Position numbers and translations under genes: made by a program
The notes under the pieces: generated by a model
Told to the model about the DNA's origin: nothing
What the model saw: only the letters and a program-made list of their open reading frames with translations
The model's database searches: none
Part shown: one piece after another, positions 494 to 21,700 of the stretch
Layout of the letters: every line of letters begins with the position of its first letter
Position numbering within the stretch: position 1 is the stretch's first letter
Assembly (NCBI GenBank): GCA_024277375.1
Contig: JAJRVD010000027.1
Span: 19,063-83,062 of the forward strand
DNA length: 64,000 nt
Direction: 5' to 3'
Source: Candidatus Omnitrophota bacterium
GTDB lineage: Bacteria > Omnitrophota > Gorgyraeia > Tantalellales > Tantalellaceae

Positions 494-3400
494 ATGGATA
501 TGAAAGAACCCAGATCTAAAATAATAATCAAAGTTATATCTCTTTCGGTGAGTATTCTCATGCTCTGGCAGGGCCTAGTGTGGGCGAATCCTGAAATCTT
601 CTCAAAAAGTAAAACTACTTTGCAACCGCTTACTTTGCGTGCTCGTGGTGATTATAGTATTTGGTTCGTAAAATCCCTCTTGGTTTCCCTCGAGAAAACC
701 GAAAAAAATATCACTAATCAAAATTTCTCTCAGGTAGCCAATATTGTCAAATCTGAAATACGTGCGATGCTTGCGATAAAAACCGGCGAGGCGGAAACGC
801 ATGATTTCCATTCTAAGCTTTTTGCGCTATTTAGCGATATTGAGACACAGGAAAAGCATAGGTTTTACCGTAAGTTTTTTCTCATTGATATGGGAGTGTT
901 TTGCATAAGATATTATTTTTCGGAAGATGTCCGAGATCCAGGAGATCAATATCAGGTTATTTCTGATGAAAAAATAGGTCGGTATCTTTATAAACAGCTT
1001 TTGCTGAAAAGAGAATTTTCTGACGATGGTATTATCAAGAAAGAAGCTGCATACAGGCTTTATGAAGCGCTTGTAACCCATCCAAAAGAAGAACCGGTTC
1101 CTAAAAAAGAACAAGATACCATATTCTTTGATGGGGAAATGGTAAAAGCAATGGATACTGATCGATATTTAATCGAAGATGCGACTGTCTCTGATGCAGA
1201 AGTAATATCTGAAATGTATAGAAATAGTATAAATCTTGAAGATATGAGTCCTTCACGTTTGATTAAGATAATCAGCCAGGGGAAGATTGGTGAAAACCAG
1301 AATACTTATTTAAAAGTGTGTCGTGATCGTCAAAGCGGGAAAGTTGCCGGTTATATTTTTGCCATTGATGGGGAAAATGGACAGGGAAATGTCTACATAA
1401 AGCATTTAGTGATTTCAACATGGTACAGACGGCAGTACGTCGCCCAGACACTTCTTATGGATATGTGTAGGACGATGCAAACGAAAAGCTATGAGAGTTG
1501 TACTATACTCCCGATTTATCCCGCTGTTACGGATATAACTAAGTTCTTGGGGTTTAAATGGGATCGCAATATAGCGATGTTCAGGAAAACTTTTGAGGAA
1601 AATTCTTGGGATGGATGTATTGCCAGGGGAGATTCGGATGAGTTGTTTAAGCGGTTCGAGGATATGTTTAAGGTCAAAGGAACCATTAAACCTTTGAGGG
1701 ATTCCTTCCGGGATGGATTGTCAGAGGCAATTGATGAGATCAAGGCTAGACTTGAAAAAATGGAAGAGAGTATTCCCAGGAGGGACAATCAGTGGAGAGG
1801 GTCTATAAAAATAGCTAATGATGAGATCGAGAAGATCTTGAAAAACATAAGATCAGATCGGGTTGTAGAATTCAGGGGAATAGTGTTACCGTCCGACTAC
1901 TTAAATATAAAGCCGAAAGAATGGCTCCTAGGATTTAATACAATTGGACTTGATCTTGATGAAAAATACGAGCAAAAAGGAATGAGGGCTTTAAGGCAGA
2001 GGATAAACAAGTTAGTGCCTGGGGCGATCGGTCTTTCATCGCAGGTACTTGATATTATGGAGTCGCGTCCGGCTGGTAGTGTTGTTCAGGAGTTTCTTTT
2101 TCACGAAATTATTTGCCCAAGAATTGGACACCGATTGTCGAGAGTGTTCCAGGAGGAATTGTTTCCTGAAAACTACCAAAGGTTATGGACATCAGGAAAA
2201 GGCGGATACAAAGACGGAATCTTGGGGCATATGTTGAAAGAGGTTATAATCGATGAAAACAAGAAAACTAAAAAGAGAGATAGAGACAGAAAACAAAAGA
2301 GAGTAAAACGAGCTAAAAAAAAGTTATCCAAAGTTGAAGCAGGCGAAAAAAAACCAGTGCGGGAGAAGCCGGGGAACGGCATAGTATTGCGCAAAAAAAC
2401 GTCTCCGGCGAGGATAAAGTGGATAAAGAATAAGTTCTTTCCAAACGCAAAGGATGATCAATATGCCATCGGAGGGGCTCCTCTGTTTGAAGAAGCCATA
2501 TTTTATTATAGTTTCGCCGTTTCAGGGATCCACATGGCGAATCTCACAAATGTGTATTTCGCGGCGTTTTTGGTGGCTCTTAGAATTTTGTTTTATTTTT
2601 TGCATACGGATAAAGATAATAAAAAAACGGAACGCACTTGGTTTGAAAAATGTGGTATTCCATTTATCATGACGATAATAGGTGTGCTGGTTGTATTGGT
2701 GCCTTTTATTTATCCTGTTACCGCCGGTGCGGAAGCAACTTTTATTAAAAGTGCTACGGGAATGCTGATTTTTACGCATAGCCTTCTAAATTGTTTTGCT
2801 GTTAACGCGGGTTGGTCTCCGGCGAATGTATTGAATTTTTTTGGGCCGAAGATACCTGCGACTTCGAAAGATGTTTTAAGGTTTATGGAAAGGATTTTCG
2901 GAAAGTTTAAATTGAAAGGGAAGAATTTTTTAGAAATAGGATTTGTTGATAGAGAAGACTATGTTTCTGACCTGAGAGACGCGGGTGTTAATGTTACCAG
3001 GATAGAATCTGCGTCTTTGAGTGCGCACCTTTTTAAATTTAAAAAATATTCTTTTCAGACTGTATTTATGCATCAGATGCCGGGGGAGATGGCCGATGAG
3101 GTTAAAGTTGTGAAAACCTTTCGTGGTGTAGCGCGTATTATGGATATCCAGGGCCGTTTAGTGATTTTTGATGAAGAAATAAAAAAACACACAAGAAAAT
3201 CTATTGAGAAAGTCTTGTCTCAAGCCGGATTGCGGATAGAGTCTATGAGTAAATATCCGGGAGTATTAGTTGTTTGTAAGGATACTATGTTGGAATATCG
3301 AATGTGGAAGCTTTTGGAAAAGTGGTTGGATCTTCTGGAGAACGATGGATATGATATTGAAGAGGTATCCGATACCCTGCTTGAGCGCGAATATGGCCAT

Positions 3401-4876
3401 GCAATTACACATTATCTCCTGGGTAAAGTCCTCAATATCGTTCGAGATAAGGGTATGACACCATTTGCTGAAAAAATAATAGAATTTATACTTGTTGTTA
3501 ATAAATCCGTAAATGTTTCAGGGATGAGATTGTTTTTTAAATTTCTCAATTCCGCTAAGCCCGCCAAGGTCGAAATCGCTTCTTTCATCATAAAAGGAAT
3601 GGGGATGAAGGCTGTAAGCCACTTAGTGTCCGAAGGTTCAGGGAAGAAGAGTGAATATAAAAGAGATCTCTATTTGGGTTTGTTGGCTCATGTCGTCGCG
3701 GAGAATTTAAATGTAACGCGGTTGGCTGCATATTACAAAAAAGTTAAGCACCCTCGTAAAAAGAAGTTTTTTGTCGAGGCGATGGTAGCTGCCGGAGAGA
3801 AGCTTGTGAAAAAGATAAAGCACAAGAGAAAGGTCGCAAGTGAAATAATCATAACGACAGAAAGTTATAATGAAAAAATATATATGGAAGAATTCATGGG
3901 ATATTCAGGGGAACTATTGAATGATATCGCTGCGGAAAGAGATAGAGCCGCAAAGGTGCTAAAGCCGGGTGTGATACTAAAGCTTCAAAAATGGTTTGCG
4001 CCGCACATGTCACCGGAAAAGTACGCGGTTAAGAGGGCTCCGTGGATTGAGGAGGGTATATTCTTTATGTTGCCGGCCCTAGCCGCGGAAGGTATAAATT
4101 ATTGGGTCCGATGGGGAGGTTGGGGAACACTTGTTCTTATATCCCTTTCGAGGATATTATTATTTTTTCTGCACGAAGGTGCACGCGGTAACGCTCCACC
4201 GAAAGAGTATATTGTTCCATTGATCGTTGCTGCTTTAGGTTTTGTGTATGCAATGCTTGTCCCACAGGTTGCTCTCTCCGGTGTTTTAAACATGTTTTTT
4301 ATCCTGACCCTTTTTTTTGCGATCGGATATACGCACTATAGTCTCAATAAATTCGCCCTCCATACAGGTATCCCCCCGGCGAGTATTGCTAAAAGTAACA
4401 GTAGACACAAAACTTCCTATCTTGTGTTATGTTTAGAGGATGTTGTCAAGGGGAGCAAAGGCAAAGAGAGGCAAGTATTAAGTATTAACGGGGCAGTGTC
4501 AGAAGAAGATATATATTCATTGCTTCAGAAAGGAATTTTTGTGACAAATGTGAAATTAAGCCAAATAGATGACCCTGATTCGGAGCTATTGAGAAATGGT
4601 TATTTTGATGTTACGGTTATAAAGGATTTTGGTGAGGCAAACAATAGGAGGGGCGAAGTATGGAAATATATTTTCCAAAGTCTCAAGCCTTCGGGGTTGG
4701 TAGTTGTTACAGATAAGCAGATCTTTGATGAAAGCGTTGCTGATGAGACATTAGATCTATCAGCTCTTGTTGCTAAGTTGTATAATTCGTCGTCAAAAGT
4801 TTGGCTTATCAAGAAGAAGCGAAGTTTTTCAAGCAGAGAAATACGGAATATTGATGAGGAGTTGTATCGCTTGTAG
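494..4876 (+). CDS. Giant (1460 aa) secreted/polytopic membrane multi-domain protein of unknown function
   Basis: A 4.4-kb uninterrupted ORF with an AGGAG-like RBS before the ATG and an N-terminal signal/TM segment. A GNAT acetyltransferase-like core is visible (GYIFAIDGENGQGNVYIKHLVISTWYRRQYVAQTLLMD, about nt 1180-1560). A K/R-rich linker follows (KKTKKRDRDRKQKRVKRAKKKLSK, about nt 2264-2444). There are several TM helices. Two degenerate SAM-methyltransferase-like segments occur (FLEIGFVDRED...GRLVIFDEE near nt 2900-3280, and GYFDVTVIKDFGE...LKPSGLVVV near nt 4480-4760). Confidence 0.75.
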   Translation: MDMKEPRSKIIIKVISLSVSILMLWQGLVWANPEIFSKSKTTLQPLTLRARGDYSIWFVKSLLVSLEKTEKNITNQNFSQVANIVKSEIRAMLAIKTGEAETHDFHSKLFALFSDIETQEKHRFYRKFFLIDMGVFCIRYYFSEDVRDPGDQYQVISDEKIGRYLYKQLLLKREFSDDGIIKKEAAYRLYEALVTHPKEEPVPKKEQDTIFFDGEMVKAMDTDRYLIEDATVSDAEVISEMYRNSINLEDMSPSRLIKIISQGKIGENQNTYLKVCRDRQSGKVAGYIFAIDGENGQGNVYIKHLVISTWYRRQYVAQTLLMDMCRTMQTKSYESCTILPIYPAVTDITKFLGFKWDRNIAMFRKTFEENSWDGCIARGDSDELFKRFEDMFKVKGTIKPLRDSFRDGLSEAIDEIKARLEKMEESIPRRDNQWRGSIKIANDEIEKILKNIRSDRVVEFRGIVLPSDYLNIKPKEWLLGFNTIGLDLDEKYEQKGMRALRQRINKLVPGAIGLSSQVLDIMESRPAGSVVQEFLFHEIICPRIGHRLSRVFQEELFPENYQRLWTSGKGGYKDGILGHMLKEVIIDENKKTKKRDRDRKQKRVKRAKKKLSKVEAGEKKPVREKPGNGIVLRKKTSPARIKWIKNKFFPNAKDDQYAIGGAPLFEEAIFYYSFAVSGIHMANLTNVYFAAFLVALRILFYFLHTDKDNKKTERTWFEKCGIPFIMTIIGVLVVLVPFIYPVTAGAEATFIKSATGMLIFTHSLLNCFAVNAGWSPANVLNFFGPKIPATSKDVLRFMERIFGKFKLKGKNFLEIGFVDREDYVSDLRDAGVNVTRIESASLSAHLFKFKKYSFQTVFMHQMPGEMADEVKVVKTFRGVARIMDIQGRLVIFDEEIKKHTRKSIEKVLSQAGLRIESMSKYPGVLVVCKDTMLEYRMWKLLEKWLDLLENDGYDIEEVSDTLLEREYGHAITHYLLGKVLNIVRDKGMTPFAEKIIEFILVVNKSVNVSGMRLFFKFLNSAKPAKVEIASFIIKGMGMKAVSHLVSEGSGKKSEYKRDLYLGLLAHVVAENLNVTRLAAYYKKVKHPRKKKFFVEAMVAAGEKLVKKIKHKRKVASEIIITTESYNEKIYMEEFMGYSGELLNDIAAERDRAAKVLKPGVILKLQKWFAPHMSPEKYAVKRAPWIEEGIFFMLPALAAEGINYWVRWGGWGTLVLISLSRILLFFLHEGARGNAPPKEYIVPLIVAALGFVYAMLVPQVALSGVLNMFFILTLFFAIGYTHYSLNKFALHTGIPPASIAKSNSRHKTSYLVLCLEDVVKGSKGKERQVLSINGAVSEEDIYSLLQKGIFVTNVKLSQIDDPDSELLRNGYFDVTVIKDFGEANNRRGEVWKYIFQSLKPSGLVVVTDKQIFDESVADETLDLSALVAKLYNSSSKVWLIKKKRSFSSREIRNIDEELYRL

Positions 4877-8871: not shown

Positions 8872-10013
8872 GTTATTAGGGATTTTTTTGTCAGGCCTTC
8901 GGCCTTTCTCTCAATGACAGTTTTTGAGGATAGATCGGTGATGAAGCTTGTGAGGGTATTTTTGTGCTTTATTGCCATCTTTAGGGTTTTGAGAGCGATA
9001 TGTGCTTCTTTGAAAAAAGAATCGGATGTTTTTAAGCAATGATCACGCGCCCCGGTCGTTTTTATTAATTTGCGGATCTTTAAGAGGTCTTGGTAGGTCT
9101 TTTTATCTTTTTTCATAAGACGAGCGAAGGTTGCTTTGTCCTTTCCTTTCAGGTCTTTATAGGTTTTCCATACCAGGAGCGTTTTTTTTGACTCGTCCAG
9201 GTCGGAAAGTATGGGTTTTCCTGTTTTTTTGCTTGTAGAAAAAACATCTAAAAGATCATCTTGTATCTGAAAAGCCTGTCCCAGGGCCAGGGCCAGTCCG
9301 GACAGCTTCTTCTGTTCGGCTTTGGAGGCGCCGGCTAATATCGCGCCGATAAGAAGAGGTCCTTCAAAGGTGTATCTGGCGGTCTTTAGGATATAGGTTA
9401 GAAAAACGTCGCGCCTCGTGATCTTCTCTATCTCTTTGACGTTGTTAACGACATCAAGAAATTCACCGATTCCGGTAGCGGCCGCGATATTGGTAAATAT
9501 CTTTAGAGCTTCTTTTTTACGCTTAGGCGGAGCATCAAATTCAGAAAGGGCGTCTACCGCCATCGCGAACATAATATCGCCCGTCACAATGCTCAAATTC
9601 GCTCCCAGATCGTTATTCAAGGGTACTCCCAGTTTTGAGTTGAATACTCTGTGTAAGGTGGGTTTGCCGCGTCTGAGATCGGAATTGTCTATAACATCGT
9701 CATGTACCAGCAAAAAATCGTGCAAGAGTTCAAGTGATAAAGAGCTCCGTAGAAGCTGTTTTCGTGGAACTTTACGCTTTTTTGTATATCCGAGGTATCC
9801 TAGGATGAAGAGCAGAGGCCGGATACGTTTACCGCTCCGCCCGAGGAAGTTCACGAGGCCGCTGAATAGCAGTCCGGAGGCCTTTTTGAGCTCCAGATTC
9901 TCGGTTGTTTCTTTAAGAAAGAGACCGAGCTCCATATCTATATCATTTCTTAGCTTAGCAAGCATGTTCAATACTGTATCATAAGTGTGATGGAGGGGCA
10001 ATAATATTCGCAT
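8868..10013 (-). CDS. Polyprenyl diphosphate synthase (trans-isoprenyl diphosphate synthase family)
   Basis: The first DDxxD motif is LLVHDDVIDNSDLRRGKPT. The second is FQIQDDLLDVF. KRIRP is near the N-terminus. The 4-nt overlap with ispH suggests an isoprenoid operon. Chain-length specificity cannot be told from the sequence. Confidence 0.85.
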   Translation of the reverse strand: MRILLPLHHTYDTVLNMLAKLRNDIDMELGLFLKETTENLELKKASGLLFSGLVNFLGRSGKRIRPLLFILGYLGYTKKRKVPRKQLLRSSLSLELLHDFLLVHDDVIDNSDLRRGKPTLHRVFNSKLGVPLNNDLGANLSIVTGDIMFAMAVDALSEFDAPPKRKKEALKIFTNIAAATGIGEFLDVVNNVKEIEKITRRDVFLTYILKTARYTFEGPLLIGAILAGASKAEQKKLSGLALALGQAFQIQDDLLDVFSTSKKTGKPILSDLDESKKTLLVWKTYKDLKGKDKATFARLMKKDKKTYQDLLKIRKLIKTTGARDHCLKTSDSFFKEAHIALKTLKMAIKHKNTLTSFITDLSSKTVIERKAEGLTKKSLIT

Positions 10014-10088
10014 TTTTAGCTTGAAATGGGGACCATATATTGTATAATAGGTAGCTCAATCAAGCACATTAAAAGGCGGGAGTTGATC

Positions 10089-10325
10089 ATGAAACCTAGA
10101 AAGAATTTTAGAAGTCGTCCCAAAAAGAATGGGGCAAAGAAAAGACAGAAAGTTTTAAGCCAAAAGAGAAGATTGGTCGCGGCAGGTGAGGACAAAGACA
10201 AAGTGGAAAAGCTGACACCAGTTGAGACCAGAAATCACCTTAAGGTAGTCGCTAAAAAGAAATCCGTAAAACCCGCGGTAAAGAAAAAGGCGAAGGCGCC
10301 TGCTAAAACTAAGGCCAAAGCGTAA
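10089..10325 (+). CDS. Small lysine/alanine-rich basic protein (histone H1/Hc1-like composition)
   Basis: MKPRKNFRSRPKKNGAKKRQ ... KKKSVKPAVKKKAKAPAKTKAKA. GGCGGGAG lies 8 nt upstream of the ATG at 10089. This is a low-complexity call only. Confidence 0.35.
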   Translation: MKPRKNFRSRPKKNGAKKRQKVLSQKRRLVAAGEDKDKVEKLTPVETRNHLKVVAKKKSVKPAVKKKAKAPAKTKAKA

Positions 10326-10352
10326 ATGGGAGGGGTATATTGCAATGTGCCC

Positions 10353-12245
10353 CTATAGAAATCTATTGTAAAAAACAAGGCTTCTTTTAGCTATCTTTAT
10401 CCAGCTGAATTCATCTTTAGCTAATTTAAATCCGTTTTTGGCGACCTTGTTTCGCAAAGCAGTATTCCGATTAAAGACCTTGTAAGCTCCTGCAAGGTCT
10501 TTTTTATTGGCAGGATTTACTATGAGACAGTTTTGTTTGTTCTTAAGGTATTTTGTTATTCCCGCGCGTTCGCTCGCTATCAGGGGGGTCCCGCACGCCA
10601 TCGCTTCCGCTGCCGTCATGCCGAAAGGTTCGAATTTTGAGGGAAGTACAAAGAAATTCGCCCTGCGGTAATAGATGGGCATAAGCTCATCTTTAATGTG
10701 GTGGGCAAAAAACACTCTGCTTTTTATATGAGTTTTGTTGATTATTGCCATAAGGTTTTTTCTTAGTCTTTTCTCTTCGGGGGTGGGGTTCTTGGACCCT
10801 CCGCCGATTACCAGAAAAAGATCCTTTTCTTTTGTTACAATTTGAGCGAAAGCGTTTAACAGGTAGTCGAGACCTTTGTTGGTAGCGAATCTACCTACCC
10901 AGAATATATAATTTTGAGGTACATCTATCTTTTTCTCTTTTTCCCCTTTTTTGAGGGGGCGAAAAAATGACGTATTTACGCCCGCGGGCAGTACAGCATA
11001 ATTCTTCTTATTGTAATTGTAAAACCGCTTGGAGTGTTTTATCATATCTGTCGATGTCATTACCAGGCCCCTGGTTTTTTTGTAAACGATCTTCTCTATT
11101 TTTATACGCTTTTTGAAATTGTAAAGTTTTTCCATCTTGATCGGATCGCCGCCCATGTGTTCTTTTTTCCAGGCACCCAAAGAGTGGAAAGTATGAAAAA
11201 AGCAGGTTCCCAGACGTTCAGTAAGTGTCATCGCTACGTATCCGGCGTCCCAGTAATGAGAGTGATATATGTTGTATTTCAGGTTCTCCTTTTTGATGAA
11301 TTTCTGCATGTTATCTACGAACTCATCCAAATAGGGGAGAAGTCTCTCTTTCGCGATAAATTTTGTTCCTCCACACGGTATCCTGATGATACGAACATCT
11401 TTTGTGACGCGCTCAACCGCTTTTTTCCCTTGAAATTTACGCGTATAGATATCTACTTTTATACCTTTTTCGGCTAGGGCTTTGGAGAGTTCAAGGACAT
11501 ATGTTACTTGCCCGCCGGTATCTGTTTTGCCAAGAATTGGTTTGGGGTCGACATAGCCATGGACAGTAAGCATGGCTATGCTTTTGATTTTTCCCGCGTG
11601 TTTTTTTAACTCAATTATTGAATAATTCGCATCAAGGATGATATCCGCGAGTTTATTATGTTTTGAAATTATTCTGTGTTCGATGGCTAGAATATGTTCG
11701 TCAAATTTATCTATTTTGTCACGTTTTCTGGCCATACGAGCTTCCAGGGTTTCTTTATGCGTGCGCGCGAGGAATATTTTTTTATCTATGTTCTTAAGAA
11801 GAGAAGTGAAGGTTCCTTCTACGATCAGGACCTTAGTGGTTTTACATTTTAGGGTCTCCCTGTCGATCTTATTCTTCTCGAAATCGACAAGAGGTTTGTT
11901 GATCTCGGTCGTTTTAAGATTTTTAAAACGCCTGATATGGCCATTTATCGAGGTGAGGTTTACCTCGCTCGTTCCCACGATTGAGATATCCTTTCGCCGC
12001 AGCTTATAATTGGTCTTTGGCGGATGCTTAAAGTAATCGTCCTGATGGAGTATCAGCGTTTTTATCTTTTTTTTCTCCAAGAGAGCCTTTAGCTCGTATG
12101 CGATCTCAGATTTACCCGATCCGGATTCGCCTCCTATGCCAATGACGTACTTGTCAGATGGGGATATCTCCGGCGAGATCGCTTTAGCTATTTTTCTCGC
12201 CGCGTCGGTATGGTGGGGTTTTATTAAGAGCTTATCGCCTATCAT
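10353..12245 (-). CDS. Fusion protein: N-terminal uridine-kinase/PRK-like P-loop domain plus C-terminal GT4 glycosyltransferase (sucrose-phosphate-synthase-like)
   Basis: The N-terminus carries Walker A VIGIGGESGSGKSEIA and LILHQDDYF, as in uridine kinase/phosphoribulokinase. The C-terminal 420 aa carry GT4/SPS signatures: TGGQVTYVLELSKALAEKG and EPFGMTAAEAMACGTPLIASERAG (the EX7E motif). Confidence 0.75.
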   Translation of the reverse strand: MIGDKLLIKPHHTDAARKIAKAISPEISPSDKYVIGIGGESGSGKSEIAYELKALLEKKKIKTLILHQDDYFKHPPKTNYKLRRKDISIVGTSEVNLTSINGHIRRFKNLKTTEINKPLVDFEKNKIDRETLKCKTTKVLIVEGTFTSLLKNIDKKIFLARTHKETLEARMARKRDKIDKFDEHILAIEHRIISKHNKLADIILDANYSIIELKKHAGKIKSIAMLTVHGYVDPKPILGKTDTGGQVTYVLELSKALAEKGIKVDIYTRKFQGKKAVERVTKDVRIIRIPCGGTKFIAKERLLPYLDEFVDNMQKFIKKENLKYNIYHSHYWDAGYVAMTLTERLGTCFFHTFHSLGAWKKEHMGGDPIKMEKLYNFKKRIKIEKIVYKKTRGLVMTSTDMIKHSKRFYNYNKKNYAVLPAGVNTSFFRPLKKGEKEKKIDVPQNYIFWVGRFATNKGLDYLLNAFAQIVTKEKDLFLVIGGGSKNPTPEEKRLRKNLMAIINKTHIKSRVFFAHHIKDELMPIYYRRANFFVLPSKFEPFGMTAAEAMACGTPLIASERAGITKYLKNKQNCLIVNPANKKDLAGAYKVFNRNTALRNKVAKNGFKLAKDEFSWIKIAKRSLVFYNRFL

Positions 12246-12329
12246 GTGAACCGTCCTTTAGAGTAGAGGGTAGGGGCGTAATGCGTTACGTCCCTACGTT
12301 TTAATATTATTTATTGTGAACGATTTTTA

Positions 12330-12357
12330 TTGCTATATATCTCGCAGTACTTATAAT
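12330..12357 (+). promoter_or_regulatory. Candidate sigma70-type promoter for glgP (TTGCTA-16 nt-TATAAT)
   Basis: TTGCTA at 12330-12335 and TATAAT at 12352-12357 with a 16-nt spacer, about 55 nt upstream of the glgP start. It lies in the divergent intergenic region. Confidence 0.25.
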
Positions 12358-12410
12358 ATACATGAAAATGACGAAATATCCTACACATATAAAGCGTTGA
12401 TCAAATTATC

Positions 12411-14861
12411 GTGAGAAAAACTGAAAAAGAAAAGATTATAGAAGACCTTAAAAGTGATTTTTTGCGTAATCGCAAATACTCGCTTGCCAAAGATGTTTAT
12501 ACCTCCACTGATTACGATAATTTTAAGTCATTGGCTATGACGATACGTGATCGCCTGATCGAGAGATGGATACTGACCCAACAGAGGTATCATGACGAGA
12601 ACAGTAAAAGAGTATATTATCTTTCCCTGGAGTTTCTTCCCGGTCGATTTTTATCTAACAATATGATCAATTTGGATATTCTCGAAGAATGCAAGAGCGC
12701 CGTTAGTGAAATTGGATTAAATCTGGAAGACTTATGCGAACAGGAAGTAGACCCCGGGCTTGGCAATGGCGGGCTTGGCAGGCTAGCGGCTTGTTTTCTC
12801 GACTCGATGGCTACGCTTGGTATCCCAGCGACAGGTTACGGGATCCGGTATGATTATGGAATATTTAAACAAAAAATTGAAAAAGGATTTCAGGTAGAAG
12901 TTCCGGAAGAATGGCTTCGCCTGGGCAACCCATGGGAATTTGAAATGCCGGAGGTGACGCTTAAGATCCGTCTTTACGGTAAAACCATTAAACGTACGGA
13001 CAAAAATGGTAAGTTATGTGTGGATTGGGTGGATACCAGTGACATATTGGCAATGCCTTATGATACCCCGATCGCCGGATACAGGAACGGTGTGGTCAAT
13101 AACCTGAGACTTTGGTCAGCGAGAAGTACTGAAGAATTCGATCTTGATTATTTTCATGATGGAGACTATATAAAAGCATGTGAAGACAAGATAGTTACTG
13201 AAAATATCTCGCGAGTACTCTATCCGAGCGATAATGTGTACAAGGGCCTTGAATTGCGTCTTAAACAGGAATATTTTTTCACCTCCGCGTCAATACAGGA
13301 TATTATTCGTCGTTTCAAGATGCACAATAACGACTTTAGCGCTTTCCCTGAAAAAACAGCGATCCATCTCAATGACACGCATCCGGCTGTAGCGATAATA
13401 GAGTTGATGCGTATTCTTTTGGACGAAGAAGAATTAGATTGGGATATGGCCTGGGGTATTACGACCGGAACATTCGCTTACACCAACCACACGATCCTCC
13501 CCGAGGCCTTAGAGGCCTGGCCGGTATCGCTCTTTGGTAAACTATTGCCCAGGCATCTTGAGTTGATCTATGAAATAAATATGAGGTTTCTTAAGGACGT
13601 AGCCAAACATTTTCCGCACGATCAGGATAGGCTTAAACGTATGTCGTTAATAGAAGAAGGACCAAATAAAAAGTTGAGAATGAGTCACCTATGTATCGTA
13701 GGAAGTCATTCGGTGAATGGAGTTTCAAAGCTTCATACGGAATTATTGAAGACGACTCTTTTTAAAGATTTTTACGAGTTTTGTCCGGAGAAGTTCAATT
13801 CGAAGACGAACGGTATTACACAAAGACGGTGGCTTAAAAAAGCAAATTCTTCTTTAGCTCAGTTAATAACCACCAAGATCGGTGATGAGTGGACCGGAGA
13901 TCTTACACAATTAAAAAAATTAATTCCATTGTCATCCGATCGGCTTTTTAAGAAAAAATGGAGTCAGATCAAAAGGGATAACAAAATAAAGTTTGCCGAG
14001 TACGTAAAGAACGGAACGGGTGTTATTATCGATCCTGATTCTATTTTTGATGTGCAGGTAAAAAGAGTGCATGAATACAAAAGACAAGTTCTTTTCGCGT
14101 TCTATCTGATAGCGCGCTATCTCAGGATAAAACATAATCCAAAAAAAAACGTAGTTCCAAGAACGGCTATTTTTGCCGGGAAGGCCGCCCCGGGATACGC
14201 GAGAGCGAAGCTGATAATAAAATTCATCAATAATATCGCGGATGTTATTAATAAAGATCCGGAGATAAATGATAAGTTGAAAGTTGTTTTTCTGGAAAAC
14301 TATTCTGTGTCCATGGCAGAGAGGATATTTCCGGCAAGTGATCTGTCGGAACAGATATCAACCGCCGGGAAAGAAGCCTCGGGTACCGGAAATATGAAGT
14401 TCATGCTTAATGGCGCGCTTACTATAGGGACATGGGACGGCGCGAATATAGAGATCGCCGAGGAAGTTGGCCTCGATAATATTTTTATTTTTGGACTAAA
14501 AGCGGATAAGATCGCTCAGATCAAGGCAACAGGGTATAATCCGCATGAGTACGTCAAGAAAAACCCGCTTCTGAATGAGTCTCTTTCTCTTATTAAGGAA
14601 GACTTTTTCTCGCAGTTTGAACCCGGGATATTTAAACCTTTGTGCGATTCACTTATCTGGCATGACGAATACATGATCTTTGCCGACTTTGAGGATTATG
14701 TCGCGACACAAGATAAAGTTTCAAAGGCATATCGTGATCAGGAAAAATGGACAGAAAGATCTATAATGAACACCGCTAATTCCGGAAGGTTCTCCAGTGA
14801 CAGGACAGTTGCTGAGTATGCCGAAGACATCTGGGGAGTGGATCATAACGGAAAAAAATGA
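12411..14861 (+). CDS. glgP: Glycogen/alpha-glucan phosphorylase
   Basis: The pyridoxal-phosphate site EASGTGNMKFMLNGALTIGTWDGANIE is present. At 816 aa the length fits. The overall GT35 pattern is present (LGNGGLGRLAACFLDS). GTG start. Confidence 0.9.
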   Translation: MRKTEKEKIIEDLKSDFLRNRKYSLAKDVYTSTDYDNFKSLAMTIRDRLIERWILTQQRYHDENSKRVYYLSLEFLPGRFLSNNMINLDILEECKSAVSEIGLNLEDLCEQEVDPGLGNGGLGRLAACFLDSMATLGIPATGYGIRYDYGIFKQKIEKGFQVEVPEEWLRLGNPWEFEMPEVTLKIRLYGKTIKRTDKNGKLCVDWVDTSDILAMPYDTPIAGYRNGVVNNLRLWSARSTEEFDLDYFHDGDYIKACEDKIVTENISRVLYPSDNVYKGLELRLKQEYFFTSASIQDIIRRFKMHNNDFSAFPEKTAIHLNDTHPAVAIIELMRILLDEEELDWDMAWGITTGTFAYTNHTILPEALEAWPVSLFGKLLPRHLELIYEINMRFLKDVAKHFPHDQDRLKRMSLIEEGPNKKLRMSHLCIVGSHSVNGVSKLHTELLKTTLFKDFYEFCPEKFNSKTNGITQRRWLKKANSSLAQLITTKIGDEWTGDLTQLKKLIPLSSDRLFKKKWSQIKRDNKIKFAEYVKNGTGVIIDPDSIFDVQVKRVHEYKRQVLFAFYLIARYLRIKHNPKKNVVPRTAIFAGKAAPGYARAKLIIKFINNIADVINKDPEINDKLKVVFLENYSVSMAERIFPASDLSEQISTAGKEASGTGNMKFMLNGALTIGTWDGANIEIAEEVGLDNIFIFGLKADKIAQIKATGYNPHEYVKKNPLLNESLSLIKEDFFSQFEPGIFKPLCDSLIWHDEYMIFADFEDYVATQDKVSKAYRDQEKWTERSIMNTANSGRFSSDRTVAEYAEDIWGVDHNGKK

Positions 14862-16879
14862 AGAAATATTTGTTGCACGACGATAATGGTAAACTAGAGA
14901 CCCATATAGATTTCAAAGGGAGTCTTAACGATCAGCAGTATGAAGTTGTAACCGCCGCGGAAGGCCCATGTCTTGTTCTCGCCGGCGCGGGAAGCGGTAA
15001 GACCCGAACTCTCATATATCGCCTGGCATATCTTTTGGAACGTGGAATCCCCCCGGGTAATATTTTGCTTATGACCTTTACTAATAAGGCAGCGAGAGAG
15101 ATGCGCGAGCGCACTGAAATGCTTTTAAAGTACAGGCCCAAAGGGTTATGGAGCGGGACATTCCATCATGTGGGGAATAGATCTTTACGCGCGTACGCTC
15201 CCGAAGTTGGTTACGAACGAGACTTTGGTATACTTGACCAGCATGATTCCCGTGAGATTATTAAGTCATGTGTAAAAAAAATGCGTATTAGTCCGGGAAA
15301 AGAAAAGTTTCCTAAGCCGTCGGTGATACAGGCAGTAATAAGTCTCGCGACAAATACCCAAAGAATCACTAAAGAAGTCTTGGAGGATAGATTCCCGTAT
15401 CTATTGAAATTCGCGCCACAGATAAGCGCGATAAAAGATCTCTATGAAAAAAAGAAAGTTTCATCGGGGAACATGGATTATGACGATCTTCTTTCAAAAT
15501 GGAAATGGCTTCTGGAGAACGTAACTGAGGTAAGAAAAAGATATTCTGAGCAGTTTCGGTACATAATGGTAGATGAATATCAGGATACGAACTTTCTTCA
15601 AGCGGACATAATAAATATCCTTAGCGGTCACCACTGTAATTTATTGGCGGTAGGAGATGACGCCCAATCTATTTATTCATTTCGCGGTGCCCGAGTAGAG
15701 AATATACTACAGTTCCCAAAAAAGTTTAAGAGCGCCAAGGTCTTTAAACTGGAGATCAACTATCGTTCAACTCCCGAAATACTGGACTTGGCGAATGATT
15801 CTCTTTTAAATAATGAGAACCAGTTTGAAAAACAGCTTAAAGCGGTAAACCCGTCTATAGATAAGCCCGCGCTGGTCGAAGTAAGAGATCCTTATGCTCA
15901 GGCGAAATTCATCGCGCAGAGGGTAAAAGAAATGCGTGAAGAGGGTATTGAGATGAAAGATATCGCTGTTCTTTTCAGGGCGCATTATCAGTCAGCCGAG
16001 CTTGAAATGGAGCTTGTTAAGAGAGGAATGCCATATATTGTCCGAGGAGGAATACGCTTTTTTGAACAGGCTCATATCAAGGATGTATTGGCTTATTTGA
16101 AAATAGTCATTAATCCTATTGATGAAGTAGCCTGGATCCGGGCTCTTGTTCTGTGTCCTGGTATCGGACCGGGATATGCGGAGAAGATATATTCCGCTTT
16201 TTGCGGATCGGGCACTGATATTGCAAGATTTCTGAAAAGTGGTTTCGTGAATAATTTGCCCAAAAAAGCGCAGGATGGATACGGGCGATTTCAGAAGATA
16301 ATGCGCGCTATAATTTCTGAAGATGTCAACGGTGATACCGGGAGCATGATAGCAGCCGTATTGGACGCGGGGTATGAAACGCATCTTCAGGTAGCTTTCG
16401 AGAACGCGAAAGACCGCGTAGACGATATACATGAACTGATAAATTTTTCTCATGAATATGAGACATGCGCGGATTTTTTAAGTGATATAACGCTCAGGGA
16501 AGGATTTAGGGGAGAGATTGTTCAGGACGGGCAAGACGAAGAATAACAGCTTGTGCTTTCAACCATACATCAGGCAAAAGGTTTAGAGTGGAAGGCTGTT
16601 TTTGTGATAGGTCTTTGTGAAGGGCAGTTCCCGCATCCCAAGGCTTATGCGGAATCGGCGGAGATGGAAGAAGAGAGGCGTCTTTTTTATGTAGCGGCAA
16701 CCAGAGCGGAAGAATTTTTATACCTTATTCATCCCCGTACGCGTTATGACTATCAGCAGGGGACGGTAATAGCTCGCCAGAGCAGATTTCTTGAAGAATT
16801 GGATCCGGATGATTATGAGGTGTGGGAAGTGGGGTCGAATTCGTTCCCAAGCAACGAAGAAAGGACCATTGAGCTGTAA
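14858..16879 (+). CDS. uvrD: UvrD/PcrA-type ATP-dependent DNA helicase, interrupted by one in-frame TAA (16544-16546); possible pseudogene or readthrough
   Basis: Walker A LAGAGSGKTRTLIYRLAYLL and motif II MVDEYQDTN are present. The C-terminal piece (16553-16879) carries motif VI, LSTIHQAKGLEWKAVFVIGL...RRLFYVAATRAEEFLYL. Both parts are in the same frame and are separated only by TAA, CAG, CTT. The track splits the gene into 562-aa and 108-aa ORFs. Confidence 0.8.
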
Positions 16880-17420: not shown

Positions 17421-18044
17421 ATGAGTACTATTATAAAATCCATATTTTTCGATCTTGGTAACGTCTTGGTTAAACTTAAGCCGGAAATGCTTGCGGAGGG
17501 TTTTGCCCCTTATTGTAAGGCTAAAAAGGGTGAGATCATCCCCTATGTTATGGAGCAATCCAAGCAAGTGGATAGATACATGGAAGGTAAATCCACGTCT
17601 TCTCAGTTTTATACAAACACCTGCAAATATTTTAAAATGAAGATCAAGTATTACGACTTTTACGAGATCTGGAACAGTATGTTCGATCCGTATCCGGAGA
17701 TGGATGATATTATAAGGACTCTTAAAAAAGACTATCCCGAAATTAAATTGCTGCTGCTTTCTAATACCAATGAGGCGCATTACGGATATATTAAAGAGAA
17801 GTATAAGATCTTGGAAGTATTGGATCATCATGTGGTTTCACACGAAGTCGGTGCTCAAAAACCTGACCCCAAAATATTTAATGAGGCGTTAAAGATAGCC
17901 GGTAGTATTTCCAAAAATACCTTTTATACGGATGATCGTCAGGATCTGATTGATGCCGCGCGTGTTATGGGTCTTCGGGCGTTTCAATTTACAGATCACG
18001 AATCTTTTAGCAAACAACTCTCCAAGTTTGAAATTAACGTATAA
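17421..18044 (+). CDS. HAD-superfamily phosphatase, YihX-like (alpha-D-glucose-1-phosphate phosphatase type)
   Basis: The N-terminus IFFDLGNVLV matches the YihX-type motif I. A C-terminal YTDDRQDLIDAA motif IV-like segment is present. Confidence 0.7.
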   Translation: MSTIIKSIFFDLGNVLVKLKPEMLAEGFAPYCKAKKGEIIPYVMEQSKQVDRYMEGKSTSSQFYTNTCKYFKMKIKYYDFYEIWNSMFDPYPEMDDIIRTLKKDYPEIKLLLLSNTNEAHYGYIKEKYKILEVLDHHVVSHEVGAQKPDPKIFNEALKIAGSISKNTFYTDDRQDLIDAARVMGLRAFQFTDHESFSKQLSKFEINV

Positions 18045-18597: not shown

Positions 18598-18693
18598 TAC
18601 GGATGATTTTTTTTGCTCGGTTATTTCAAACATTTTAAAAGCATATGAGGTGCAGGCGATGAAACTGTCATTGAGAAGAGGAGCTAAGAGCAA

Positions 18694-18733
18694 GGGGGAC
18701 AGCCTCTTTTTGGCCAAAAAGAGGCTGTCCCCC
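18694..18733. repeat. Palindromic repeat family A copy (gggggacagcctctttttggccaaaaagaggctgtccccc)
   Basis: A perfect hairpin. It lies inside the first 35 codons of the six-frame ORF 18650, so the real start of the giant gene is probably downstream at 18755. Confidence 0.65.
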
Positions 18734-18754
18734 TTGCTACGTTGTTCGCTCGTG

Positions 18755-21700
18755 ATGACGGGGAAGGGTATTGCCTCGCTGGTCACTTTGATAGCTTTTG
18801 TATTAAATATTTTAGGCGCGGAAGTTATTAGTATAAAAGCATATGCCGCTATTTCCCCTGAAATAGCTTCTACCAATCCCGCTGAGTATAATTTTCTGAA
18901 TGTCGATTCTTTTACATTACCCAAATACCTTGGAACCATAAAAGATTTGTGGAAGTCTGCCTCCGGACGAGACACGGTTATTCATATCCAGGACGCTCAT
19001 TGTAACTATGCCGCGCAGGATACGATAGCTAAGATGATAGAACGTATCGATTCGGAGTACGATATAGACGTGATAAATCTTGAAGGCGGCGCGGAGGATT
19101 ATGACCTGTCTTTGTTTACCGATATTGAGGATAAGGGCGTAAGACAAAAAGTAGTCGACTATTTTATGAAGCTTGGCATGGTCTCCGGTGCCGAAAGCTT
19201 TGTTCTTAATAATCAGGATAAAGCAAAGTTATGGGGCGTCGAAGACGTGGATCTTTATTTTGACAACCTTAGCGCCTACCGGAATTCGCTGGAGTACAAG
19301 GAAGAAGTTGACGGGTATCTTAAAATGCTCAGCCGTTTGCTGAATGAACTTAAAATAAACGTTTATTCGAACGAACTTTTGGAGTTTGATCTTAAATATT
19401 CCGCTTACAAGGCGGGTAATCTGGCTTTCAGAGATTATGTGATCTATATTCGTGATAAGGCCGCGAAATGTGCTATCGACATGGAGGAGTTTGAGAATAT
19501 TGCGTTATTGTCTGAGTCTCTTGAACTTGAGGGCAAAATTGATTTCAAAAAGGCCAATCGCGAGAGGGATATGCTCATAGAAGAGCTCCGGCGCATGGTC
19601 TCGAAAAACGAGCTTGAAAACCTGGTGCTCAAGACCTTACAGTTCAAGAAAAAGATAATTTCCCGGAAAGACTATTATACGTATCTTTTTGAAAAAGCGC
19701 GGCTTGTGAACATCGGCTTGGATGGGTTCGGCGAACTCAGGAAATACACTGACTATATCTCAAAGTATCAGACCGTTGATAGATCAAAGATATTAGAAGA
19801 AATGTCTATTATTGAGGATGCGATCAAGGATGTTCTATGCGTAAAAGATAAAGATCGTACGCTTGTCAGGTTGTCCAAGAATTTCGCGCTCCTAAAGAAC
19901 ATATTCAACGTCTCGCTCACAAAAGACGACTATGTGTATTACAAAACCAACGAACCCGCGTTCGCGGTGAAAAACTATATTTCATTCATTAAGGCTAACG
20001 ACTCATCATTGCGTGGAGCTGTGCCTTTCTCGCCGTTGCGAGGAGCCGACCTATCCTCTGTCATTGCGAGCCCGCCGAAGGCGGGAGAAGCAATCTCTGA
20101 AAACATCTATAATCTCGACCGCCACCGCGAACAAATATCCCGTTTTTACGAAGATGGCATCAAGCGTGACGATGCATTCTTGCGCAACCTCAGGTTTCAA
20201 CGTAAGCAGGGAGTAGGAAGCAGGGAGCAGGGTGTCGTAGGAGAGGCCTCTAGCCGTGAACAAAAAACGACAATTTTAGTTACCGGCGGATTTCACACCA
20301 AAAATTTATGCGAGCTGTTTAAAGAGAAAGGTATCTCCTACGTTTCTATCATGCCTAACTTCCGGAATGAGAATGGTTATGAAAGCCCGTATTTTAACCT
20401 TCTCGCTGGTAAGAAAAATGATGTAGCCGCGGCGCTTACAAGTGATATATCTTCGTTGGCGTTATATTCTGATTTATTGCAGAACGGTCTAAACAATGGA
20501 GATTTTACCTCGAATGTTAAAGCGGTTAGAAGGTTGTGGGTAAGTCTGGTTGCCGCTCAGATCAGGAAAAACGGGAGAAATGTCATATTCGGAGATATTA
20601 ATGGTCGTTATAGACGCTATTCATTCAACTCCGAAGATGGTGATCCTGTAGCGGGACTTACAATAAACGGAAAACAGGTATACGCAAGGAATTTTGGTGG
20701 GGAAAGATCCCTTCAGGCTGAAGCGAAGGCATTATATGAGGAAATTTCCAGAGATATTGTATCCTTTGCCGCGGAAAGAGAGGAGATAAAGTCCGCGGTT
20801 GTCAGGTTAAGAGAGATCTTTAGTACTTTTCCCGACGTTGTTATCTCTGAAGTGAGAAATTTCTGGGAAAATGAAAAAGAAAGCACCGGAAATGTTTTCA
20901 GAGCTGTCGAGTTCTTTGATCTGATGCCCGAGATAATGCTTAATGCGAAAGTAGAGCGGTTGAAAGAAGCGGCGTTGAGTTTTGTCGACCGTCAACTGGA
21001 ACATATTTTTGACAGAGAAAACGCGGTGGCCATATATAACGAGATAATATCTACCGACGAAGGTATTCCTCAAGACCTGCTCAAATACGCTTTGTACTAC
21101 AGGAATCTAAAGGAGGGTAAAACTCTTACGGATGAGCAGTTGGCCCTGCATGGCCTCAGCAGCAAAGAGGACTTCCCATATTCCCTCGAGGTCGATCGTG
21201 TCTTAAAACACAAGGATGATAGTAATCCTAAAAAACTTTTGCTTATTTATAATGCTGAACATACCAGTATGGTAGGGATGGGAGACCAGATATCAAATGT
21301 GGTTCCCCTGGTTCAGGCACTTAAGGATAAATATCCCAAGTTGGACATAACCATATATACGGATAAACCCTTTGTGTATGAGGCTCATGACAATGTCCGT
21401 GTATTTAGCATGTCTTCTCCCGGAATAAATGCCGAAGAGGTTTTTGATATGGCGATCGATTATTCGGACAGTAAGAGTCGAGAGGAATATCCGGATAAAT
21501 ATTTAGTTCAAGAAGCGCAGATCTCTATTGTAGGGGATTTCAATAATTTAACAGTTAAGGCTAAGGGGTTACCGCCTTTGGGCATAAAAGTTCGTAATCG
21601 AAGTAATGCATATTCATTAAGCTTACGGTTATGTGCCGAATTGAGACTTCCTGTCAGGATAGGAACAGAACAACCTCAGACAAGTTCGATAGTTCTTGGC

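Follow-up and report, generated by a model that had tools for sequence, protein, structure and literature searches.

A P-loop kinase fused to a sucrose-phosphate-synthase-like glycosyltransferase in Candidatus Omnitrophota and its possible role in sucrose metabolism

Why should a kinase with the fold of uridine kinases be joined in one polypeptide to a glycosyltransferase resembling sucrose-phosphate synthase (SPS)? The question is raised by a gene on the minus strand (10353..12245, stop codon 10353-10355) of a 64,000-nucleotide stretch of a Candidatus Omnitrophota genome (assembly GCA_024277375.1, contig JAJRVD010000027.1, positions 19,063 to 83,062), which is called the window below and whose numbering is used throughout. 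From ATG to stop, the gene encodes 630 amino acids (aa). A preliminary description, made from the letters of the window, had seen in it a uridine-kinase-like domain fused to a glycosyltransferase of family 4 (GT4), and had placed it in a compatible-solute or storage-sugar module. The kinase–GT4 fusion is a real, intact and uncharacterized variant of known folds, and its best explanation would be a bifunctional enzyme of the metabolism of sucrose or a closely related fructosyl-disaccharide.

The polypeptide consists of an N-terminal P-loop sugar-kinase domain of an unnamed family with the phosphoribulokinase (PRK)/uridine-kinase/PanK fold (aa 1-213; 11607..12245), an eight-residue linker, KKHAGKIK (aa 214-221; 11583..11606), and a retaining GT4 domain of the SPS/MshA type with a phospho-sugar acceptor site (aa 222-630; 10356..11582), the last assigned by Pfam, PDB matches and residue mapping; these and all the motifs within the gene lie on the minus strand. 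Re-translation of the open reading frame (ORF) recovers both motifs that had been reported for the N-terminal part, the Walker A motif or P-loop GESGSGKS (GIGGESGSGKSEIA in the preliminary description; aa 39-46; 12108..12131) and QDDYF (aa 68-72; 12030..12044), with D69 as the presumed catalytic base. The profile comparisons suggested for the two halves, with PRK, Glycos_transf_1 and PF00862, all gave scores above threshold or strong matches: PRK (PF00485) matches aa 34-157 with 39.0 bits (gathering threshold 22), Glyco_transf_4 matches aa 244-426 with 73.8 bits, Glycos_transf_1 matches aa 436-607 with 120.2 bits, and GT-B_Sucrose_synth (PF00862) matches aa 220-399 with 46.4 bits (gathering threshold 23). 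The full-length AlphaFold2 model has a mean predicted local distance difference test score (pLDDT) of 90.3 and a predicted template-modelling score (pTM) of 0.68, and pLDDT falls below 50 only at residues 215-217; this pTM and the short disordered hinge are consistent with two rigid domains held by a flexible linker.

The fusion recurs. Besides the exact window protein, which is present in the database (P0001), the same architecture occurs in 40 further clusters at 90% identity (P0002-P0041), whose members are 620-666 aa long, at 57-69% identity. As these clusters come from independent assemblies and carry both domains, the fusion is not an assembly artefact. All its named homologues belong to Candidatus Omnitrophota. 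In sister Omnitrophota (L001-L003), a 219-aa kinase and a 415-aa glycosyltransferase are encoded by separate genes overlapping by ATGA; the split glycosyltransferase is 72% identical to the corresponding half of the window protein, and the KKHAGKIK linker stands exactly where the sister genomes have the stop/start overlap. Such a Rosetta-stone pair, fused here and overlapping there, implies that the two activities work together, and predicted functional coupling of the two halves is thus supported. The refuting possibility named in the preliminary description, namely that the architecture would prove common and characterized, applies in its first part only: the architecture is recurrent in Omnitrophota, and literature searches for the combination of such a kinase with SPS returned no paper.

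A second kinase–GT4 fusion lineage is represented by P0336, at only 35% identity. It lies in a single-strand gene array on a contig (L092 1-17908, Logan contig SRR25904991_97403) among genes for a RecA-like protein, three ParB_N proteins, PAPS_reduct, TnpB and a reverse transcriptase, which gives the contig a phage- or mobile-element-like look. A phage origin of the kinase family was considered and rejected: no member was found in IMG/VR, and GenBank phages gave weak GT4 matches only. In a plasmid collection, there was one weak match to the kinase, from Gemmatirosa.

In an alignment of 113 sequences of the kinase family, G39, G44 and K45 of the Walker A motif and R170 are invariant, and E40, S41, G42, D69, Y71, F72, E143, T145, R173 and R175 are conserved in at least 90% of sequences. 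R170, R173 and R175 are the lid arginines of the segment RMARKR (11721..11738) according to this alignment, and the DD(Y) motif lines up with DDY(H) of the solved phosphoribulokinases 5b3f and 9qko; we take D69 to be equivalent to Asp62 of human UCK2. The family also has invariant motifs of its own (MIGDK at the very N-terminus, PPxxN, VGxxEV, KPLV, and IEH) and further invariant polar residues (D4, H12, N79, R83, E94, K117, E189, and H190). The catalytic Asp, the lid arginines and the invariant polar residues argue for a catalytic domain with a specific substrate of its own. With Walker A, the DD motif and the lid arginines all intact, the domain is not a degenerate P-loop, a possibility that the preliminary description had kept in view.

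The structure model of the kinase domain (pLDDT 96, pTM 0.92) has as its neighbours pantothenate kinase (score 18.8), the FrcK-like protein 3c8u (17.6), which carries the annotation of a putative fructose-transport-system kinase, uridine kinase (17.3), PRK, and D-glycerate 3-kinase; identity to any of these, or to RBSTP0775 of B. stearothermophilus (1rz3), is at most 21%. The domain belongs to the PF00485 fold family by its score above the gathering threshold, its Walker A motif, the acidic D69/D70 pair and the arginine-rich lid. All curated models of the individual enzymes fail: the whole protein and the kinase domain alone score, respectively, 56.7 and 60.5 bits with udk (TIGR00235, cut-off 220.3) and 52.6 and 56.0 bits with uridine kinase NF004018 (cut-off 180), and the kinase domain scores 32.7 bits with phosphoribulokinase NF005655 (cut-off 236). 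Intact catalytic motifs combined with the failure of every curated model indicate a competent kinase of the uridine-kinase fold that is not a uridine kinase, so that the kinase half appears to be a catalytically competent P-loop kinase, putatively of a sugar. The failed uridine-kinase models also leave unsupported the earlier suggestion that a nucleotide sugar would be made in situ.

The best solved relatives of the GT domain are T. elongatus SPS (TeSPS; 6kih, E 2.5e-52), H. orenii SPS (2r60, 1.3e-37) and MshA (3c48, 5e-36). Mapping of the residue roles established for TeSPS (PMC7264703) shows that catalytic His158 and Glu331 correspond to H354 and E539 of the window protein, ribose-binding Glu339 to E547, UDP-phosphate-binding Arg249 to R452, and fructose-binding Gln51 to Q246. 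Of the two residues holding the 6F-phosphate, Arg178 corresponds to R380, and Arg105, to K299, a conservative substitution. Membership of the GT4 family and the GT-B fold is apparent from matches to both Rossmann halves, the E-x7-E region (E539, E547) and the confident GT-B model. Thus, the remainder of the protein was rightly described as a GT4 with SPS-type motifs, the catalytic His/Glu and acceptor-phosphate residues being kept. At the same time, it scores 210.5 bits with the curated SPS model (TIGR02472, cut-off 576) and 191.8 bits with the curated MshA model (TIGR03449, cut-off 462.5). The H. orenii-type partners of the kinase elsewhere, at 272.7 bits, likewise stay below the SPS cut-off. 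Relatives of the fusion are labelled ‘mannosylfructose-phosphate synthase’ by JGI, the other database name being merely ‘glycosyltransferase’. Taking all this into account, we regard the domain as an SPS/MshA-type GT4 with a predicted phospho-sugar site, and not as a certified SPS.

The kinase family extends far beyond the fusion. Among 1.84 billion proteins, 258 family representatives pass E<=1e-30, and 687 pass E<=1e-10; the standalone kinase of about 214 aa yielded 844 word-filtered matches, and the family occurs in at least 122 GTDB species genomes. Carriers include Bacteroidota (among them cultured Chryseobacterium, Kaistella, and Epilithonimonas), Wenzhouxiangella, Spirochaetes, Thermotogae, Chloroflexota, Acidimicrobiia, Alpha-, Gamma- and Zetaproteobacteria, Latescibacterota, Zixibacteria, and a Woesearchaeote. 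For a survey of neighbours, 81 non-redundant kinase loci, one per genome, were subjected to ORF calling seeded with hidden Markov models, and the genes within a radius of 3 kb were classified. A relevant enzyme was found in 72 of the 81 loci; the nine loci without one include a kinase fusion (L050) and several short contigs.

The most frequent partner is an SPS-like GT4 (37 loci, in variable gene order), for which at least three types are seen: window-like (about 415 aa), H. orenii-SPS-like (about 475-514 aa), and a Thermotogae/Bipolaricaulota type. Adjacency of kinase and GT4, in either order, is observed in Latescibacterota, Fraserbacteria, Bacteroidota, Proteobacteria, Thermotogae, and others; a cultivable carrier of a kinase–SPS locus is Wenzhouxiangella limi (L037). 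A GH13_18 phosphorylase of the glycoside hydrolase (GH) class is the partner in eight loci, the kinase lying directly upstream of it in loci of Chloroflexota and Actinomycetota. This partner is 59.7% identical to sucrose-6F-phosphate phosphorylase of T. thermosaccharolyticum (TtSPP; 6S9V, E 1e-197) and keeps all six residues binding the fructose-6-phosphate moiety (R134, R195, Y201, H344, Q345, and R399), as these are known from the literature (PMC6720575). GH100 invertase-like proteins stand near the kinase in 13 loci, in some of them together with a TonB-dependent receptor and a sucrose-transporter-like MFS protein; cultivable carriers of such loci are Chryseobacterium taeanense, Kaistella chaponensis and Epilithonimonas pallida (L048, L062, L065). 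In 15 loci, from Spirochaetes and Acidimicrobiia, the immediate downstream partner is a protein of about 700 aa (665-767 aa; e.g., L017 4914-7049 and L066 8642-10870, and 13 other loci), which had no match in Pfam or NCBIfam and whose sole match among solved structures is a weak one to T. maritima maltosyltransferase (1gju, E 1e-4); we consider this protein a candidate for a new enzyme acting on sucrose or sucrose-6-phosphate. Further fusions join the kinase to a GH100-like domain (five representatives) and to a phosphotrehalase-like GH13 (P0275, 589.6 bits with NF008183, above the subfamily cut-off of 535).

Several loci are organized as importer operons. In one (L051), the order is LacI, substrate-binding protein, permease, kinase, and phosphorylase, and GT4–kinase pairs are likewise found in operons with LacI and ABC or DeoR and ABC genes; a phosphotransferase system (PTS) is not evident within these loci. 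The pairs are accompanied by GalT-like (three loci) or DUF4922 (11 loci) proteins, which are candidate NDP-hexose phosphorylases (NDP, nucleoside diphosphate), and, in ten loci of the proteobacterial type, by bona fide GlgC (558.6 bits). In L016, L018, L026, L037, L046, L056, L069, L075, L076 and others, the kinase–SPS pair lies between a divergent DUF4922 (GalT/HIT-like) gene and genuine glgC, an arrangement that suggests ADP-glucose as the nucleotide sugar of the SPS-like enzymes in these loci. ROK sugar kinases co-occur in some kinase loci.

What substrate would connect these contexts? Kinases with different partners are 38-52% identical to each other, compared with 43-65% within a partner class; they are thus about as alike as members of one class, which favours a single substrate. 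As predicted from their families, the recurrent partners are all enzymes of sucrose, of sucrose-6F-phosphate or of some other phosphorylated disaccharide, and two of them, the TtSPP-type phosphorylase and the phosphotrehalase-like hydrolase, would act on the phosphorylated disaccharide itself. In the operon of LacI, importer, kinase and phosphorylase, a kinase is needed, since the importer delivers the sugar and the phosphorylase acts on sucrose-6F-phosphate. Of the single functions compatible with all these contexts, the simplest is that of a disaccharide kinase making sucrose-6F-phosphate. The coupling of the kinase to its partners is conserved and the sucrose theme recurs across the loci; the regiochemistry of phosphorylation, the direction of the transfer and the identity of the sugar we infer from this pattern.

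For the fusion, we tentatively favour the following scheme, which we rate at somewhat below an even chance. The kinase domain would phosphorylate the fructofuranosyl 6-OH of sucrose at the expense of ATP, giving sucrose-6F-phosphate, and the GT4 domain would run the SPS reaction backwards, converting sucrose-6F-phosphate and NDP to NDP-glucose and fructose-6-phosphate. The net effect would be a PTS-independent breakdown of sucrose in which the energy of the glycosidic bond is kept in the nucleotide sugar; NDP-glucose could enter glycogen or yield glucose-1-phosphate via an NDP-glucose phosphorylase. In other genomes, a GalT-like or DUF4922 enzyme could convert NDP-glucose and phosphate to glucose-1-phosphate, and with this step added the GT4 route would be stoichiometrically equal to the phosphorylase route. 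The SPS reaction lies close to equilibrium, and it is normally the phosphatase alone that draws it forward. A fused kinase would push this chemistry to breakdown, whereas in cyanobacterial and plant SPS the fused phosphatase draws it to synthesis. The recruitment of the uridine-kinase fold would be explained by a likeness of sucrose to a nucleoside, in which the fructofuranosyl 6-OH would correspond to the ribose 5'-OH, and the glucose attached at the anomeric carbon, to the base.

A broader version of the scheme, on which we are a little more reserved still, is that the kinase family is the missing PTS-independent sucrose 6F-kinase feeding at least four kinds of enzymes that split sucrose-6F-phosphate, namely GH13_18, reversed SPS-like GT4, GH100-like and the protein of about 700 aa; many ‘SPS’ genes of non-photosynthetic bacteria would then be catabolic, and the Omnitrophota fusion would carry out, in one polypeptide, sucrose + ATP + NDP -> NDP-glucose + fructose-6-phosphate + ADP.

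Several observations weigh against sucrose breakdown. No importer, regulator or NDP-sugar phosphorylase lies beside the fusion gene in the window. The sugar pair may be other than glucose and fructose-6-phosphate, given the shortfall of the GT domain from the SPS cut-off and its almost equal score with the MshA model. GlgC, which accompanies the pair in nine loci of the proteobacterial type, can equally be read as a supply of ADP-glucose for synthesis. Loci of Bacteroidota with GH100, kinase and MFS genes resemble fructan or sucrose loci with a fructokinase. AgaSK, the closest described enzyme, is reported to phosphorylate the 6-OH of glucose, and not that of fructose (PMC7688924), and no fusion to GH36 of about 935 aa, as in AgaSK, was seen among the best 150 representatives of the kinase family.

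The most serious competitor, although we consider it doubtful, is a fructokinase combined with SPS: free fructose would be phosphorylated to fructose-6-phosphate and condensed with NDP-glucose to sucrose-6F-phosphate, so that sucrose could be made or recycled as an osmolyte or a storage sugar. This is the closest version of the idea in the preliminary description, and it fits part of the data, since SPS uses fructose-6-phosphate as its acceptor and the GT domain has kept the phosphate-binding residues, GH100 invertase-like partners would release fructose, GlgC could supply ADP-glucose, and one structural neighbour of the kinase is the putative fructose-transport-system kinase 3c8u; in Halothermothrix orenii, the SPS gene adjoins a PfkB fructokinase gene. 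It leaves unexplained, however, the operon in which LacI, an ABC importer and the kinase stand with sucrose-6F-phosphate phosphorylase, an enzyme that frees no fructose, as well as the fusion to the phosphotrehalase-like hydrolase. Moreover, fructose-6-phosphate, being a central metabolite, does not require a supply of its own, ROK sugar kinases are already present in some loci, and no sucrose-phosphate phosphatase recurs in the 81 kinase loci. Nor does any HAD phosphatase recur beside the kinase–GT pairs of these loci, and this, together with the placement of several pairs in importer operons with LacI or DeoR and ABC genes, which points to catabolism and away from synthesis, speaks against the proposed role in making a compatible solute.

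Sucrose breakdown could also be right in its logic and wrong in its sugar. The pair would then act on another glycosyl-fructose or glycosyl-polyol phosphate, for example mannosylfructose-6-phosphate with GDP-mannose as the nucleotide sugar, or an inositol-phosphate glycoside as in MshA, and the window-type GT would be no glucosyltransferase. We consider this unlikely, even though neither the SPS model (210.5 of the required 576 bits) nor the MshA model (191.8) is satisfied, JGI names the relatives mannosylfructose-phosphate synthases, and a gene of GH130, the mannoside-phosphorylase family, together with an extra GT-B-like gene adjoins the pair in sister Omnitrophota. The window has no GH130, a true SPS is the closest relative of the GT domain among solved structures, and the kinases accompanying window-type GTs are about as close to those accompanying H. 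orenii-type SPS or sucrose-6F-phosphate phosphorylase (45-47% identity) as to one another (51%). The fold and the Pfam family, common to phosphoribulokinase and uridine kinase, would in addition accommodate a PRK-like 1-kinase converting fructose-6-phosphate to fructose-1,6-bisphosphate, a nucleoside kinase giving UMP for a nucleotide-sugar donor, or a non-catalytic regulatory domain sensing nucleotides. All of these are highly improbable, as the uridine-kinase equivalogs and the PRK subfamily model failed, the source of the phosphorylated disaccharide would be left unexplained, and the catalytic Asp, lid arginines and invariant polar residues argue for catalysis on a specific substrate.

If sucrose phosphorylation followed by splitting is correct, it assigns a function to a kinase family of hundreds of clusters at 50% identity, now annotated as ‘uridine kinase’ or ‘hypothetical’. 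The kinase would then supply sucrose-6F-phosphate to SPP-type phosphorylases, answering a question raised in reviews of GH13_18 (PMC7178133), and many SPS-like genes of heterotrophic bacteria, usually read as genes of osmolyte synthesis, would belong to an energy-conserving breakdown of sucrose; the fusion would offer a compact catalyst of two domains that turns sucrose into NDP-glucose. Even if the kinase were a fructokinase, it would be a new, non-orthologous family of sugar kinases dedicated to sucrose metabolism. What is most valuable here is the pattern across the family, as it gives a directly testable hypothesis of PTS-independent sucrose catabolism.

A separate subfamily of kinases was used as a parallel only, outside the evidence for sucrose phosphorylation. 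The kinase beside an OtsA-like gene in L080 was considered as a member of the family and rejected, as it belongs to a paralogous subfamily with 26-33% identity to the main family. This subfamily (P0392-like; 2381 matches) contains no true Udk either (47.5 vs. 220.3 bits). In Chloroflexota (L080, L088, L094, L095, and L096), its member lies directly downstream of a fusion of beta-phosphoglucomutase and GH65 phosphorylase and is followed in most of these loci by ROK (in some), the main-family kinase and sucrose-6F-phosphate phosphorylase. The P0392-like kinase and GH65 could be a second pair of disaccharide kinase and disaccharide-phosphate phosphorylase, for example for trehalose-6-phosphate.

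The surroundings of the fusion gene in the window proved to be of local significance. The preliminary description had linked it to divergently transcribed glgP and a nearby YihX-like glucose-1-phosphatase. Divergent glgP is indeed present (12411-14861, Phosphorylase, 1106 bits), and so is a HAD hydrolase gene (17421-18044); the YihX identity of the latter does not hold, its best NCBIfam match, glucose-1-phosphatase NF006991, reaching 74.1 bits against a cut-off of 295, so that ‘YihX-like’ denotes a resemblance and no assignment. Genes for glgP, HAD, IspH, the chorismate-binding enzyme and UvrD are absent from the vicinity of the kinase in all 81 loci, and NUDIX and polyprenyl synthase were each found once. 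A stretch of 20 kb with the order HAD, NUDIX, UvrD, glgP ... polyprenyl synthase, IspH, chorismate enzyme is syntenic within Omnitrophota. Thus, since neither glgP nor the phosphatase lies near the kinase in 81 genomes outside the close relatives, the functional module is reduced to local synteny. A link to isoprenoid or envelope synthesis, considered because of polyprenyl synthase and IspH downstream in the window, was rejected on the same counts (1 and 0 of 81 loci).

At 10013-12411 and 14861, the window lacks genes that are present in L001 and L004: between glgP and the kinase–GT gene, it is without GH130 and a GT-B-like gene of 356-359 aa, and it is also without a membrane protein of about 150 aa after glgP, a SpoIIE phosphatase, and a GATase subunit by the chorismate-binding enzyme; the region appears to be a streamlined version of the synteny block of these two genomes. 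A terminator-like hairpin with a T-run, seen in a consensus scan only, lies 52 nt 3' of the stop codon of the fusion gene (10288..10301, minus strand) and suggests a monocistronic gene at this locus. The region separating the fusion gene from divergent glgP (12246..12410), characterized by consensus scans only, contains a promoter-like site for glgP (12330-12357), also from a consensus scan only. A near-perfect hairpin with a 12-bp stem in this region (12270-12297, GTAGGGGCGTAA...TTACGTCCCTAC) might serve as an operator or as a structured leader. A small, very Lys/Arg-rich ORF (10092-10325, plus strand; 77 aa from an ATG with a good ribosome-binding site) converges on the fusion gene; it has a promoter-like site upstream (10021-10048, 11/12 matches) and no Pfam match; L001 and L004 have ORFs of about 100 aa at the equivalent position.

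Elsewhere in the window, the gene of the UvrD-type helicase (14858-16879, plus strand) is split into ORFs of 562 aa (14858-16546), comprising the N-terminal domain and the start of UvrD_C, and 108 aa (16553-16879), with the last part of UvrD_C (profile positions 289-346). In syntenic relatives, the gene is undivided (682-691 aa); the split may reflect decay to a pseudogene, a deletion within the gene or an error of sequencing. Neither of two giant ORFs on the plus strand (494-4876, 1460 aa, and 18650-29623, 3657 aa) matches a Pfam family at E<=1e-4; L001 encodes, at a position similar to that of a giant window ORF, a 1450-aa protein with HEAT repeats and enolase domains.

Among known systems, the GT half compares most directly with TeSPS (6KIH) and H. 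orenii SPS (2R60), with which it has in common the GT-B GT4 fold, the catalytic His/Glu, the UDP-phosphate Arg/Lys, the fructose Gln and the 6F-phosphate residues. The SPS proteins of cyanobacteria and plants carry a C-terminal phosphatase or phosphatase-like domain, whereas the window protein carries an N-terminal kinase; it is their mirror image, and a kinase at the N-terminus instead of a phosphatase at the C-terminus implies the opposite direction of the pathway. Sucrose synthase and TreT of Thermococcus are retaining GT-B enzymes that, running in the catabolic direction, split an imported disaccharide with NDP and keep the bond energy as NDP-glucose, and the TreT gene lies in an ABC-transporter cluster, like several kinase–GT4 pairs; these enzymes use an unphosphorylated disaccharide and need no kinase.

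The same net chemistry, sucrose and ATP (with phosphate) to fructose-6-phosphate and activated glucose, is proposed for the kinase combined with GH13_18 phosphorylases (TtSPP, 6S9V; IcSPP, 6S9U; RgSPP), for which the source of sucrose-6F-phosphate in bacteria has been stated to be unknown (PMC7178133). In those systems, the splitting enzyme is a phosphorylase and glucose-1-phosphate is formed, whereas the enzyme in the window is an NDP-dependent GT4, and the product would therefore be NDP-glucose.

The nearest characterized analogue, likened here by description, is probably AgaSK of Ruminococcus gnavus E1, the only subject of the papers returned by a literature search for ‘sucrose kinase’. In this protein, a GH36 alpha-galactosidase, which yields sucrose, is fused to a sucrose kinase domain (RgSK; UniProt G4T4R7, residues 724-935) of about 215 aa modelled on uridine kinase; it is encoded beside sucrose-6F-phosphate phosphorylase and an ABC importer, and in one relative the two domains are separate genes (PMC7688924, PMC6521584). 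Like the window fusion, AgaSK joins a uridine-kinase-like P-loop kinase of about 215 aa to a carbohydrate-active domain of sucrose metabolism. The arrangement differs, AgaSK having an N-terminal GH36 hydrolase and a C-terminal kinase, and the window protein, an N-terminal kinase and a GT4 transferase, and so does the chemistry, with sucrose-6(Glc)-phosphate as the reported product of AgaSK and phosphorylation at the 6-position of fructose proposed for the window kinase. Neighbours of the AgaSK type, phosphorylase and importer, are not seen at the window locus, the phosphorylase being present in eight of the 81 loci of the kinase family. The kinase family should not be filed under AgaSK.

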